30,570 nucleotides of DNA, taken from positions 1 through 30,570 of the forward strand of contig CAZFUA010000001.1 in NCBI GenBank assembly GCA_964521995.1, read 5' to 3'. A model generated the notes under the pieces. That model saw only the letters and a list, made by a program, of their open reading frames with translations. It ran no database searches and had not been told where the DNA came from. This DNA is from Candidatus Micrarchaeota archaeon (GTDB lineage: Archaea > Micrarchaeota > Micrarchaeia > Micrarchaeales > Micrarchaeaceae). Of the stretch, positions 37-4,542 are shown in pieces. Position numbers and translations under genes: made by a program. Each line of letters opens with the position of its first letter. Within the stretch, counting starts at the first letter, position 1.

Positions 37-643
37 CTGACTTATGTCCCAATCCTCCCTAAAGAGATAGGTTTTGTATAGTCAATTAACTAACTGTTTC
101 TGATGTTGTGTATTGTCCTCCCTGACGTATTTCCTGACGACATCTTCTGTTACCGAACTAACCGACCTGTAGAAATAACCACTGCTCCAAAAATGTCCAC
201 CGAAATATGTCTTCCTAAAATTCGGATGGGAACGGAACATTTCATACGAACTTGCACCTTTCAGCAGACCGATTGCTTTCGATGGGCACATTGTCTGAGG
301 CAGTATTGCAATCACATGTACGTGATCCTCCATAACGCCCAATTCTACTATCGTTATTCCGTGTCTTTCTGCAACTGATCGTATTATCTTCTCGCAATCC
401 ACATAATGAGATTCCTTTTTCAGGGTCTCATACCTGTATTTCGTGCACCACTGCAGGTGCATCTCGTTTATTCCGCCCGAATGCGTGCCGTGCGCAAAGT
501 TATTATTTTCATAGTTCACACTATCCATATTGTTCACGTCTCGGCGGCCTAACGGCCACTTTGAGACAAAATCGAAAGGCAGGGATAATAATCAGCGCCT
601 GTTTCATCCAATGCGTAAACGCATGTGGTTTTCACAGACTTGC
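37..643 (-). mobile_element. IS200-like element (tnpA only; ends approximate)
   Basis: Upstream of tnpA is a subterminal hairpin at 608-628 (minus strand CCACATGCGT-TT-ACGCATTGG), preceded 15 nt earlier by TTGAT (648-644). A weak CCTATCTCTTTAGGGAGG hairpin (71-54) and TCAG (40-37) may mark the right end, which is uncertain. Confidence 0.5.
82..537 (-). CDS. tnpA: IS200/IS605-family Y1 (HUH) transposase TnpA
   Basis: HLQWCTKYR N-terminal motif, HUH motif DHVHV, SSGYF and catalytic Tyr helix VRKYVRE; about 150 aa. An alternative ATG start lies at 528. Confidence 0.93.
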   Translation of the reverse strand: MNNMDSVNYENNNFAHGTHSGGINEMHLQWCTKYRYETLKKESHYVDCEKIIRSVAERHGITIVELGVMEDHVHVIAILPQTMCPSKAIGLLKGASSYEMFRSHPNFRKTYFGGHFWSSGYFYRSVSSVTEDVVRKYVREDNTQHQKQLVN

Positions 644-714: not shown

Positions 715-2913
715 TCATTCCATGAAGTTCTCCGGTCTGGGCGGTTCTTCAGGCTGGCCCTTCCGCTTCCTTATCTCCCTCACTATCTTGCTCTGCAGTT
801 CCAATGGAAGTCTTTCATAGCCGGCAAATTCATAATACCATATCGCCCTTCCCTGGGTGGAGCTTCTCAGGCTGTTGGAGAATCCCTTTATGACCTCGGA
901 TACTGGCATCTTGGCGTTTATCGACATCTGCTCCCTGTCCTGCGCGATGTTGAGAACCTGGCCCCTCCTGCTCTGCAGCATGGTTATCACGTCGGACATG
1001 TATTCCTGAGGAACGTTGATCGTGAATATCTGCTTAGGTTCCACCAGCGACACCCCGGCAGTGAGCATGCCCGCATATATCGCGTTCCTTATCGCAGGGA
1101 TTATCTGGGCCGGACCCCTATGCACAGGATCCTCGTGTATCTTCGCATCTACTATCTTCACCATGACCCCTGAGCACTTCTCCCTTGCGAGCGGCCCGTC
1201 CTTCACCGCCTCCTGGAATCCGTCTATGAGGAGCTCCATCACCTCGTTGAGGTATTGCACCCCGTGGGTAGCGTCAACAAGCATGCAGTTGTTGTACACG
1301 TATACAACGCCCCTTGCCGTGGGCCTGTCAAGCCCCGCATCTATCATGGCCTGTATTGCTGTCTGGCCCTTCGGCGGGCCATCGCGTATCTTGCCCTCGT
1401 CCAGCGCCGTCCTCACGGAATCCGGAAGAGGTTCGACCTCTATGTAGAACCTAGAGTGCCTGTTAGGCGTCTTGCCCTCGATTGGCCCTGCCTTGGCGTT
1501 TATCGTCTCGTGGTAAACGACTATGGGCTCGCTCGTGGTTATGGGGATCATGAACTCGTCCCTGAGCTTCGTCTCTATTATCTCCAGATGCAGCTCGCCC
1601 ATTCCGCTTATGAGATGCTCCCCGGTTTCCTGGTTTATCTCGACCTTTATGGTCGGGTCCTGCTTTGACAGGACTCTCAATGCCTCGATAAGCTTTGTCG
1701 TGTCCCTCGAATCCTTCGCCTCCACCGCCTTGGTGACTACTGGCTTCGAATAGTGCGTTATCTGCTCGAAAGGTTCTATGACATCCTCGCTCAGGGTGTC
1801 CCCGACAGATATGTCCTTCAATCCTATCAGGGCTGCGATGTTTCCCGCTGGGAGCTGGTCCACTATCACCCTGTCCTGGCCCATGTATATGCCGACCTGC
1901 TGTATCTTCTGGGTGTTGGCCATTCCCGATATGTGGAACTCCACCCCCTTCTTCGCGATTCCGGAGAACAGCCTTCCTACGGCTATCTCCCCGCTGTGCT
2001 GGTCGTATATTATGTTAAACACCACCATTATCGTCTTTGCGCTGCTGTCGACATTCACCATAGACTGCCCTTCCACGCTGCCTATGTCCCCGTGCCATAT
2101 CTGCGGTATCCTGTAGGGCTGCGCGATGTCCGGCGATGGAAGATGGTCTATTATCATGGCGAGAACGGCCTCGTCTATAGGTGCAAGCTCCTGAAGCTTC
2201 TTTATGCCTTCTTCTCCCATTGACGAGTACTCGAACACCTGCTTGAAGTTTATCTTGTACTTGTCCATTATGTGCTTGGAGACGGCCCACCTGTCGTATG
2301 CGCTCCCGAAGCATATGCTTCCGTCCTCGACGCTGACATTCCACTTGCCTACGAACTCCTCCGGGCAGTACTGGTCTATGAGCTTGTTGATGTTCCTTAT
2401 GAGCTCCATCAGCCTTTCCATGGTCTGTTCAGGGGTGAGCCTGAGCTCCGTGAGAAGTCTATCTGTCTTGTTGACGAAAAGAACCGGCTTCGCCTTCTCC
2501 CTGAGCGCCTGCCGCAGGACCGTGTCGGTCTGCGGCATTATCCCCTCGACAGGATCAACTACTAGCACGACCCCGTCCACGGCCCTCATCGATCTGGTGA
2601 CGTGCCCGCCGAAGTCAACGTGCCCTGGCGTGTCTATCAGGTTGATTATGTAATCCCTGTCATTGTAAATGAATCCAAGGGATATGTTGGCCGATTTTAT
2701 CGTCATTCTTCTATCTTTCTCTATGGCCTCGTAGTTCGTGTACAGGACGTCCCCGGATACCGTCTTTGATATAAGGCCGGCCTTGACAAGTAGCGAATCG
2801 GTAAGGGTTGTCTTGCCATGGTGCACGTGTGCTATTATCGCTATGTTGCGTATCTGGCTCACATTGCCCATTAATTTTGTAATCTCCTCTACTATGTACT
2901 CCTTCCTTACCAT
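715..2913 (-). CDS. fusA: Archaeal translation elongation factor 2
   Basis: 732 aa; IRNIAIIAH..GKTT, DTPGHVDF, NKTD, GMGELHLE and diphthamide loop HEDPVHRGP; lies downstream of rps7. Confidence 0.98.
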   Translation of the reverse strand: MVRKEYIVEEITKLMGNVSQIRNIAIIAHVHHGKTTLTDSLLVKAGLISKTVSGDVLYTNYEAIEKDRRMTIKSANISLGFIYNDRDYIINLIDTPGHVDFGGHVTRSMRAVDGVVLVVDPVEGIMPQTDTVLRQALREKAKPVLFVNKTDRLLTELRLTPEQTMERLMELIRNINKLIDQYCPEEFVGKWNVSVEDGSICFGSAYDRWAVSKHIMDKYKINFKQVFEYSSMGEEGIKKLQELAPIDEAVLAMIIDHLPSPDIAQPYRIPQIWHGDIGSVEGQSMVNVDSSAKTIMVVFNIIYDQHSGEIAVGRLFSGIAKKGVEFHISGMANTQKIQQVGIYMGQDRVIVDQLPAGNIAALIGLKDISVGDTLSEDVIEPFEQITHYSKPVVTKAVEAKDSRDTTKLIEALRVLSKQDPTIKVEINQETGEHLISGMGELHLEIIETKLRDEFMIPITTSEPIVVYHETINAKAGPIEGKTPNRHSRFYIEVEPLPDSVRTALDEGKIRDGPPKGQTAIQAMIDAGLDRPTARGVVYVYNNCMLVDATHGVQYLNEVMELLIDGFQEAVKDGPLAREKCSGVMVKIVDAKIHEDPVHRGPAQIIPAIRNAIYAGMLTAGVSLVEPKQIFTINVPQEYMSDVITMLQSRRGQVLNIAQDREQMSINAKMPVSEVIKGFSNSLRSSTQGRAIWYYEFAGYERLPLELQSKIVREIRKRKGQPEEPPRPENFME

Positions 2914-2922
2914 GAAAATCAG

Positions 2923-3654
2923 CTATTTGGCGCTCCTTGCCATGCGCTCTATCTCGTTCTTGCGCTTTATCGCGTAACTGTTTACGTCCATGTTCGCCGC
3001 AAGTATCAGCTCGTTCGCAAGCGCGTCCGATAGTGTTCTCCTGCTTCCGAACGCACTTATTATCGCAGCCATGGCTATGTTCCTCAACGCGGTGTCGAGC
3101 CTTCTGCTCGCGCTTATGTCCACGGCAACGTTGGATTTTATGCCGCCGTAGACGACCCTAGTCGTGTCCTCTATGGGCGCGCTGTTTTCCAGCGCCCTTA
3201 CGAGCACCTCTAGGGGGTTCCTCTTCGTCTGCCTGTTGACATTGATGAATGCCACCTCTATGATGTGCATTGCCTTGAGCTTTTTGCCCTGTAGCCTTCC
3301 CTTCGTGCGTATTATGTGGCCGCTTATCTTTCCGCCCGTACCTCCGCGCATGAGCGTATTGCTCATCCTCTCCACTATGTTCAGGTTCGCCTTGGAGTAG
3401 CTCTTCCTGCTGTCCCTCCTGAACGTGGATGGATACGACAATGGTTTGAGGTTTATGTAGTTCTTGAGGCTAAGGTCTAGCACCTCAACGTCGTATGAAT
3501 ATCTATCGAAAAGAAGCGTGTCTCCGGTAGGTATTGGAGGGCTTTGCATCTCTTCTTCATTTGGCGCAGGTCTGGGTTTTGTCCTTCTCTGCCTTTGGGC
3601 CCTCTCGGCATGATTCTCTTCCTGGTTTTCCTGCGCCGTGTTCTGATCAGCCAT
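2923..3654 (-). CDS. rps7: 30S ribosomal protein uS7 with N-terminal extension
   Basis: NIVER..N.LMR, GKKLKA, NPLEVLVRALENSAP.ED and C-terminal K.NEIERMARSAK; sits between rps12 and EF-2. Confidence 0.96.
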   Translation of the reverse strand: MADQNTAQENQEENHAERAQRQRRTKPRPAPNEEEMQSPPIPTGDTLLFDRYSYDVEVLDLSLKNYINLKPLSYPSTFRRDSRKSYSKANLNIVERMSNTLMRGGTGGKISGHIIRTKGRLQGKKLKAMHIIEVAFINVNRQTKRNPLEVLVRALENSAPIEDTTRVVYGGIKSNVAVDISASRRLDTALRNIAMAAIISAFGSRRTLSDALANELILAANMDVNSYAIKRKNEIERMARSAK

Positions 3655-3658
3655 CTTA

Positions 3659-4096
3659 TCATCTCTTGGGCTTCTCCTTCTTTCCTGCCCTCACCAATTG
3701 TATGTTGGCGCCGTTCACTTCCACCACCTTGTACTTCATTCCCGGGATGCATCCCATCTGGCCCCGTTGGGATCCGCCCAGGCCCTCTATTGTGACCTCG
3801 TCGTGCTCGTCTATGAATCCTATGGATCCGTCTCCGGGAACGAACGCGCCCACAATCGAGCCATTCTTTATTATCTGCACCCTTACGCATTTTATCTGGC
3901 CGGAGTGGGGCTGCTTCTGCCCTACGGCGAATTTCTGCAGCACGAGGGCCTTCGCCCTTGGCACCGTACCCATTGGATCATATTTCTGCTTCAGCTTGAA
4001 CTTCTTCCTCTTGAGCCACTTCTTGAGCAGCCGCTGGTGCTTCCTCTGCCTTAGGAGTTTCCTTGCTGCAAATTCACCGTTTGGCAATGTAATCAC
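3659..4096 (-). CDS. rps12: 30S ribosomal protein uS12 (divergent)
   Basis: FAARKL, KQP.S..KCVRVQ.IKNG, AFVPGDG, DEHDEV, IPG and KKEKP motifs. The real start may be TTG at 4087, with GTGAT as a Shine-Dalgarno-like element. Confidence 0.96.
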   Translation of the reverse strand: MITLPNGEFAARKLLRQRKHQRLLKKWLKRKKFKLKQKYDPMGTVPRAKALVLQKFAVGQKQPHSGQIKCVRVQIIKNGSIVGAFVPGDGSIGFIDEHDEVTIEGLGGSQRGQMGCIPGMKYKVVEVNGANIQLVRAGKKEKPKR

Positions 4097-4396
4097 TTAG
4101 TAGGTTTCATTTAGTATATTGGAGTTTCCTGGATCTGTTATCGAAAGCACAGATACGGAAAACGGGAGACCGCATACGATTCCCAGGGATACAGGAGTGC
4201 CATCGAAGACCTGCGCGTTTATGTTTGACGCCTTTGCAAGATGCAACACGTCGCTGAGCCTGTCCCCCTTGTTCTTGGATGCTATGATTATCAGTTTAGC
4301 CTTGTTTTCCATTATTGCCCTTGTTACCCTGTTGATTCCGAACTCTGCCTTGCCGCTGTCAACAGCTAATCTTATATCGTTGTTTAAATCTGCCAT
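4097..4396 (-). CDS. rpl30e: 50S ribosomal protein eL30
   Basis: DIRLAVDSGK..FG, LIIIAS and LG.VCG.PFSVSVLSI.DPGNS.IL. Start moved to ATG 4396 (99 aa); the ORF-track extension is AT-rich leader. Confidence 0.95.
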   Translation of the reverse strand: MADLNNDIRLAVDSGKAEFGINRVTRAIMENKAKLIIIASKNKGDRLSDVLHLAKASNINAQVFDGTPVSLGIVCGLPFSVSVLSITDPGNSNILNETY

Positions 4397-4542
4397 ACAG
4401 CCACTGACGCAGAAGTATCTTATGATGTAAATACAAAACAGACTATCTATTATTATCTTGGAAAGATATATAATCATTTACCCTGAGGTTAATACTTTAT
4501 TATTGCGCGTTTAATAGCTTACCATGTGGATGGGTTGAACTT

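Follow-up and report, generated by a model that had tools for sequence, protein, structure and literature searches.

The stretch of DNA analysed, referred to as the window, comprises 30,570 nucleotides of Candidatus Micrarchaeota archaeon, a member of the Micrarchaeales (GenBank assembly GCA_964521995.1, contig CAZFUA010000001.1, positions 1 to 30,570 of the forward strand). It carries, on the minus strand, the gene of the archaeal elongation factor 2 (aEF-2, here EF-2), the translational GTPase that serves as translocase. In this protein the aspartate of the P-loop is replaced by histidine, His31, and three residues of switch I that border the same pocket are replaced as well. The features of the gene are as follows, in window coordinates.

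715-2913, minus strand: aEF-2 coding sequence, 732 amino acids (protein P0001), with a match to TIGR00490; the only EF-2 found in the genome.
2806-2832, minus strand: G1 motif (P-loop), AHVHHGKTT, residues 28-36; His31 (CAC, 2821-2823) stands in place of the Asp that binds the second cation.
2692-2745, minus strand: switch I core, LYTNYEAIEKDRRMTIKS, residues 57-74, remodelled; it contains EKDRRMTI.
2620-2634, minus strand: G3 motif DTPGH, residues 94-98, intact, with the catalytic switch-II His98 (role: PMC8244253, PMC5084732).
2461-2472, minus strand: G4 motif NKTD, residues 148-151, the guanine-specificity motif, intact.
2452-2454, minus strand: I154L, a fifth clade-specific change, just past NKTD.
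1114-1122, minus strand: HRG loop of domain IV, residues 598-600, with the diphthamide His598; intact, the modification itself being predicted.

Within switch I, Asn60 is encoded by AAC (2734-2736), Arg69 by AGA (2707-2709) and Met70 by ATG (2704-2706). The Mg-binding Thr71 (2701-2703) is kept, and Arg69 and Arg68 occupy positions Thr-2 and Thr-3 relative to it. The canonical counterpart of this core in the sister orders is RVMDFDEQEQARGITIKS. Lys34 and Thr35 of G1 and Asp94 are also unchanged, and a GSA motif is present at residues 203-205. A preliminary description of this DNA had reported the His31 and Arg69 substitutions, and these are borne out by the translated open reading frame, by the codons and by an ungapped HMMER alignment of residues 2-160 with the EF-2 of Methanoperedens (PDB 6u45; 196 bits), in which H31 falls on Asp31 and R69 on Gly69. 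Its statement that DTPGH, NKxD and the diphthamide loop are intact holds too.

The roles of the altered positions are described in the literature. [quoted passage not shown] The further claim that both cation-site residues are lost is correct in that both are replaced, but the ligand at Gly69 is a backbone carbonyl, which a substitution does not by itself remove (PMC8244253). Ile70 contributes to the hydrophobic packing of domain I against domain III (PMC8244253). A review presents the P-loop Asp as a second catalytic residue that translational GTPases conserve, eIF2-gamma being the notable exception; the EF-Tu mutant D21A has a ribosome-stimulated GTPase that is ∼1000-fold slower, and in ribosome-bound EF-G the equivalent Asp coordinates Mg2+ near A2662 of the sarcin-ricin loop (PMC5084732). 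The switch-I Gly is weakly conserved in eEF2, Ria1, Snu114 and aIF5B (PMC4342817).

Fifteen Micrarchaeales EF-2 sequences were compared, column by column, with 60 other archaeal EF-2 sequences drawn from the sister orders and from representatives of 50%-identity clusters. The Asp31 column is 100% conserved in the 60. Twenty-five columns are invariant in this set, and the Micrarchaeales depart from it at just two of them, having His at 31 and Asn at 60 in place of Asp; at the 71 columns that are at least 90% conserved, differences are confined to 31, 60, 69 (G to R or K) and 70 (I to M). Relaxing the level to 80% brings in a single further column, I154L. Asp60, by its Thr-11 spacing, is presumably the equivalent of the EF-Tu switch-I Asp that holds a water on Mg2+. 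As read from these alignments, the pocket change is a set of four residues, D31H, D60N, G69R/K and I70M. The two-residue change first reported is real, but the set is larger, with D60N and I70M having been missed.

The altered pocket is widespread in the Micrarchaeales. Among the 120 nearest database proteins (73-100% identity), 119 have H31/R69 and one has Q31; position 69 is basic in all 120. In each of the 45 other Micrarchaeales genomes inspected directly, His31 is accompanied by Arg or Lys at 69. The recurrence of the same residues in these proteins and genomes excludes a sequencing error in the window. Species-representative genomes were also scanned for the motif AH[VIM]HHGKTT alone, which is present in at least 120 genomes, so that counts by lineage are lower bounds. 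The 120 matches listed include at least 56 GTDB species of the Micrarchaeales type, with R69 in 44 and K69 in 12. Two Micrarchaeota species representatives (L199 and L200) have an EF-2 frame that breaks ∼20-40 codons past the P-loop, by stops or a change of frame; these breaks are probably assembly or long-read indel errors.

Outside this clade the canonical residues are found. In 38 genomes of the sister orders of Micrarchaeia, Asp31 and Asp60 are kept in 38 of 38 and Gly69 in 37, the remaining one having RSMT. Two exceptions occur within the order itself: G025 (family f2), which reads D/D/S/M at the four positions, and G033, which is fully canonical (D/D/G/I). In the EF-2 tree the canonical Micrarchaeia branch first, then G025, then G033, which is sister to the H/N/R/M clade (99% support). 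The canonical sister orders, together with this branch order, indicate that the set was acquired on one stem inside Micrarchaeia and vertically inherited. The pocket residues have been kept under purifying selection since then. It had been suggested that the trait might be shared by DPANN archaea as a whole. This is not borne out, as the sister orders are canonical and so are most of the EF-2 sequences sampled from Nanoarchaeota, the phylum of Nanopusillus.

The identity of the gene was considered as well. The match to TIGR00490 scores 939.5 bits against a cut-off of 738.45 and aligns residues 7-720 with profile positions 5-717 of 720. The five-domain architecture is complete in Pfam terms (PF00009 GTP_EFTU, PF03144 domain II, PF14492 EFG_III, PF03764 EFG_IV and PF00679 EFG_C). 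Upstream of the gene are three ribosomal protein genes, identified by NCBIfam matches NF003106, NF003254 and NF002172, respectively.

2923-3654, minus strand: uS7.
3659-4096, minus strand: uS12.
4097-4477, minus strand: eL30.

The eL30-uS12-uS7-EF-2 cluster is the normal chromosomal place of a housekeeping EF-2. No second EF-2 was found in the assembly (953 kb, 108 contigs, 87.5% complete), where the other matches are only aIF5B-like and EF-1alpha-like genes, and the single-contig relatives G019, G032 and G035 have one EF-2 each. Because of the family match, the gene cluster and the sole copy, the protein with H31 and R69 is the housekeeping, essential translocase and not a paralogue; the objection that it might be a non-essential copy, raised with the original proposal, fails. 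A Dph2 homologue (PF01866, 227 bits) is encoded on another contig of the same genome (C14). Divergent archaeal EF-2 paralogues, termed aEF-2p, are said to have been described by Narrowe et al. in 2018; they reportedly accompany a canonical EF-2 and have lost domain-IV tip or diphthamide residues. By this definition, such an identity is ruled out by the intact HRG loop and by the failure to find a second EF-2.

His31 is found in EF-2 of several other archaeal groups. A Thermoplasmata clade (including Lutacidiplasmatales, UBA61 and UBA184) has AHIHHGKTT with LYLNF and R-L/C/Q-LT, as in AHIHHGKTT...LYLNF...RLLTINN. Nanopusillus acidilobi and its kin have FTW...REMTVYG, a Woesearchaeota/UBA10117 group has LTW...RLMTIYG and Aenigmatarchaeota have FTW...RELTIYG. 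One Woese-like sequence, P0156, has His31 with Asp60 kept and RQMT. No second canonical EF-2 was found in five genomes of these other His31 types. As in the Micrarchaeales, the P-loop His is in the sole EF-2, Gly69 is lost, Asp60 is lost to N or W except in P0156, and position 70 is usually Met or Leu. The Micrarchaeales differ from them in their separate origin and in having R or K at 69, where the others have L, C, Q or E; Asn60 is common only with the Thermoplasmata type.

Changes were counted on a tree of 89 EF-2 sequences, and the analysis was repeated with columns 26-74 left out. His31 requires 4 changes (5 without these columns), a residue other than Gly at 69 requires 9 and a residue other than Asp at 60 requires 3. 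Topology tests without columns 26-74 reject trees in which all His31 sequences are held together (p-AU 5.9e-7) and trees that join the Micrarchaeales to the Thermoplasmata type (p-AU 1.8e-4). A grouping of the three Trp60 types is not rejected (p 0.33). The rejection of single-clade trees indicates at least three origins of His31: in the Micrarchaeales, in the Thermoplasmata clade, and in the Nanopusillus, Woesearchaeota and Aenigmatarchaeota types.

Transfer of a P-loop/switch-I segment between the Micrarchaeales and the Thermoplasmata type was considered and is ruled out, given that the flanking residues follow each group's own relatives and that the joint clade is rejected. As a separate observation, one sample, MFD09222, yielded both a Thermoplasmata bin (bin.2.161, L154) and a Micrarchaeota bin (bin.2.172, L200) with His31 EF-2, and the two types have the study prefixes JOPF, SMAG, SPRUCE, YP, REE and KM43 in common. 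The Thermoplasmata and Micrarchaeota carriers share habitats and may be host and symbiont.

The preliminary description raised the question whether positions 31 and 69 co-vary, and they do so in one direction. Gly69 is lost in every His31 origin, and His31 has never been seen with Gly69; Asp60 is lost in three of the four origins. On the other hand, at least five lineages with Asp31 have lost Gly69 (RSMT, RQMT, RRMT, RKIT), usually with Ile70 changed to Met. The link is thus one-sided in the sequences sampled: His31 implies loss of Gly69 and not the reverse. Independent pairs all point in the same direction, but there are only 3-4 of them, too few for significance in a sign test.

The pairing of H31 with R69 was also proposed to be compensatory, the new Arg or His supplying positive charge in cis, and to give a GTPase that may be independent of the cation or tuned by pH. 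That the pocket changes as a unit partly supports a compensatory reading. Arg, however, is not the general partner of His31, the other lineages carrying L, C, Q or E, and charge donation in cis by Arg cannot be the general mechanism for the same reason. Arg69 appears to be a lineage-specific partner, and the common denominator of the His31 lineages would be His31 together with a lost switch-I geometry. Within the Micrarchaeales, the strict occurrence of R or K at 69 implies that positive charge matters.

A stronger version of this idea makes Arg69, or Lys in some species, an arginine finger in cis whose positive group substitutes for the monovalent cation, with His31 making room and removing a carboxylate that is no longer needed. 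Such a role would account for the restriction of position 69 to R or K throughout the species matches, nearest proteins and genomes counted above. Elsewhere among P-loop NTPases, K+ and the nitrogen of an Arg or Lys finger occupy the same site, and fingers have repeatedly taken over from K+ (PMC6310460); a basic residue at 69 also recurs in lineages that have Asp31 with RRMT or RKIT (P0166, P0173, P0145, P0246). Nevertheless, the non-basic residues at 69 in the other His31 origins mean that a basic partner is not needed. Canonical factors conserve Arg68, one residue before, and EF-Tu and EF-G yielded no arginine finger in an exhaustive search (PMC5084732). An Arg69 finger is considered unlikely.

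The P-loop AHVHHGKTT has three His within four residues, and a different occupant of the site can be envisaged: a divalent or transition metal, or a tightly bound water, held by the cluster of His29, His31 and His32 through softer nitrogen ligands. Many of the Micrarchaeales and Thermoplasmata carriers come from isolate sets whose names suggest mine, peat or acid soil, which is no more than a hint, but the same His31 is present in groundwater Woesearchaeota and Aenigmatarchaeota. Moreover, canonical factors also have His29 and His32, for which no role as metal ligands is described, and the loss of Asp60 and the altered geometry of the Gly69 carbonyl fit a dismantling of the site and not its retuning. 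Such a different occupant is very improbable.

Other translational GTPases of the same genome retain the P-loop Asp. aEF-1alpha has GHVDHGKST and ERGITI, aIF5B has GHVDHGKTT and AGGITQ, aIF2-gamma (contig C35:2359-3591, L271, outside the window) has GHIDHGKTS and an EF-1alpha-like paralogue has GHKDHGKST. A cell-wide loss of this residue is ruled out by these four proteins. The paralogue, which exists beside the normal aEF-1alpha, is a 409-amino-acid open reading frame on contig C107 with GHKDHGKST ... TGGLTID ... DVPGH.

In aIF2-gamma, switch I is altered in a similar way. It reads KR(N/S)MTI in 29 of 29 Micrarchaeales genomes, compared with KRGI(T/S)I in 14 sister-order genomes, and HSES in the 29, compared with mostly HSEE in the 14. 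The other His31 lineages keep the Gly of aIF2-gamma, KRG(I/L)(T/S)I, and differ in this from the Micrarchaeales. From these motifs, the Gly-Ile of switch I appears to have been rewritten to X-Met in both EF-2 and aIF2-gamma of the Micrarchaeales. The same rewrite in two translational GTPases points to a cause at the level of the clade over one purely specific to EF-2.

This parallel weakens the possibility that the Asp was replaced under pressure from a toxin or inhibitor, with the switch-I changes being compensatory. A precedent exists in bacteria: the Salmonella type VI secretion system toxin Tre-Tu ADP-ribosylates EF-Tu specifically at Asp21, and D21A/E/N proteins are not modified (PMC9825190). 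In its favour, the Micrarchaeales and a Thermoplasmata clade reached the H31/N60 solution independently, and both have bins from the same studies and once from the same sample (the MFD09222 bins). We know of no archaeal toxin directed at the P-loop Asp of EF-2, and none aimed at this residue was found. Retention of the Asp by aEF-1alpha, aIF5B and aIF2-gamma is a further objection, and many replacements would serve for escape, yet His appears in every origin. Target-site escape is hardly probable.

The aIF2-gamma change also bears on drift, whereby a mildly deleterious change of the pocket would have been fixed in small populations with a fast-evolving, reduced translation apparatus and partly compensated, with no new mechanism. 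A second altered factor is in keeping with this explanation, as is the long stem that leads to the H/N/R/M clade (0.13-0.26 changes per site). It is harder to reconcile with the constancy of His31 in the nearest proteins and in every genome of the clade that was read, with three or more independent origins that include free-living Thermoplasmata with genomes of 2.2-2.3 Mb, or with the narrowness of the change, in which just 4 of the 71 most conserved columns are affected and all lie in one pocket. Drift is quite unlikely as the full explanation.

The reading favoured here is that the Micrarchaeales have a sole translocase with a rebuilt pocket that would work GTP without the second cation, His31 replacing the Asp-metal bridge. 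Its probability is put at about 0.45. Four residues lining the pocket of the gamma-phosphate and second cation were replaced together (D31H, D60N, G69R/K and I70M) along the stem that leads to the main Micrarchaeales clade. With D31H the second cation loses its sole side-chain ligand, the Asp31 carboxylate, which binds K+ or Na+ off the ribosome and whose EF-G equivalent holds Mg2+ near A2662 on the ribosome. Replacement of Gly69-Ile70 probably changes the shape of the main chain from which the carbonyl ligand comes and may abolish that ligand as well, and Asn60 takes away a second conserved acidic residue. GTP would then most likely be bound and hydrolysed with no second cation in place, and the imidazole or imidazolium of His31 may contact the phosphates, the sarcin-ricin loop or both directly. 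The Lys or Arg at 69 would be an auxiliary positive charge peculiar to the Micrarchaeales. As the remaining catalytic parts are unchanged (Lys34, Thr35, Thr71, Asp94, His98 and NKTD), an otherwise ordinary ribosome-activated translocation is to be expected.

Several points weigh against this. The contacts given to His31 presuppose its position and protonation. The strict R/K at 69 leaves room for Arg69, and not His31, as the working charge. The cation site may be of little importance on the ribosome, and what has changed may instead be the contact with the sarcin-ricin loop or the packing of domains I and III. By analogy with the strongly impaired Asp mutants of EF-Tu, the variant might be a slower enzyme that slow growers tolerate. 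P0156, with His31 and Asp60 both present, indicates that the residue set is not obligatory. Lastly, no change was found in the rRNA partner of a new contact: in the two closed Micrarchaeales genomes in which the sarcin-ricin loop was read, it is canonical and has not co-changed (G019, AGUACGAGAGGAAC; G035 differs at the last base only), the genome of the window being without an assembled 23S rRNA.

A variant of this loop is present elsewhere. The 23S sarcin-ricin loop of Nanopusillus acidilobi CP010514 (L266), a locus assigned to large subunit rRNA by Rfam, reads AGUACGAAAGGAAC and has a GAAA tetraloop in place of the near-universal GAGA (Escherichia coli G2661). The EF-2 of this organism is of the His31/Trp60/Glu69 type.

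A broader form of the proposal is that archaeal EF-2 has on at least three occasions exchanged an Asp/metal pocket for one that is metal-free and built on His, and that in the Micrarchaeales this belongs to a wider retuning of how the translation GTPases use cations, which includes aIF2-gamma. This generalisation is tentative and rather doubtful.

Known systems provide partial parallels. The closest is the canonical EF-2 of Methanoperedens nitroreducens (PDB 6u43/6u44/6u45; PMC8244253), which has the same family, length, five domains and G-domain numbering and the same Lys34, Thr35, Thr71, DTPGH, NKxD and diphthamide loop; its Asp31, Asp60, Gly69 and Ile70 correspond to His, Asn, Arg and Met in the Micrarchaeales. 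Translational GTPases without the cation-site residues are also represented by eukaryotic eIF2-gamma, with Ala and Asn, and by bacterial EF-G II (Thermus EF-G-2, PDB 1WDT). However, eIF2-gamma is the only known translational GTPase that is activated by another protein factor and not by the ribosome (PMC5084732), and EF-G II is an accessory paralogue without the catalytic His, whereas the Micrarchaeales EF-2 is the only translocase and keeps His98. The pocket residue also differs, being His here and Ala or Gly there. A more distant likeness is that between K+-activated GTPases (MnmE, FeoB, dynamin) and those with Arg or Lys fingers (Ras-GAP, G-alpha), where the K+ of the P-loop is replaced by protein-borne charge (PMC6310460); a similar replacement may have occurred in this EF-2.

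It is already known that eukaryotic eIF2-gamma and EF-G II have lost cation ligands and that the switch-I Gly is poorly conserved elsewhere (PMC4342817). The literature on K+ and finger GTPases that was examined holds no case of a P-loop His in a cation-replacing role, and no description was found of a P-loop His in archaeal EF-2 or of Asp variants in DPANN EF-2. Three points are new: the His31 type of the Micrarchaeales arose independently and has been passed on vertically, the full set comprises four residues, and aIF2-gamma shows a parallel change.

The need for an Asp-bound cation on the ribosome is still debated, and this natural variant is a test of the cation site in translocation. Whole clades with His for Asp in their only translocase, always with switch-I changes, amount to natural, convergent and pre-compensated mutants. 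If the broader form of the proposal is true, the second cation (K+ or Na+ off the ribosome, Mg2+ near A2662 on it) would be dispensable for translocation. The four residues are a short list for transfer into a tractable archaeal EF-2, and these clades can be recognised simply by their P-loop His motifs. Some carriers appear to exist in co-culture: protein P0041 is from a 990-kb contig labelled Ca. Micrarchaeum sp., and the genome of Nanopusillus acidilobi, with its His31 EF-2, is complete.

Some further features were observed in EF-2 genes and around the locus. Many archaeal EF-2 genes are 900-1257 amino acids long, with the match to the window EF-2 resuming at residues 29-34 (P0123-P0131 and P0137; genomes G139, G146 and G156), which suggests an intein-like insertion inside or beside the P-loop. 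In the window, uS7 has 243 amino acids and its family match begins at residue 45, giving an N-terminal extension of ∼45 amino acids if the first ATG is used. The gene nusA is absent between eL30 and uS12. A transposase of the IS200/IS605 family is located at window positions 82-537 on the minus strand (NF033573, 106 bits), ∼180 bp past the EF-2 stop. Archaea often have EF-1alpha and uS10 at this place; in this genome EF-1alpha is on contig C35.

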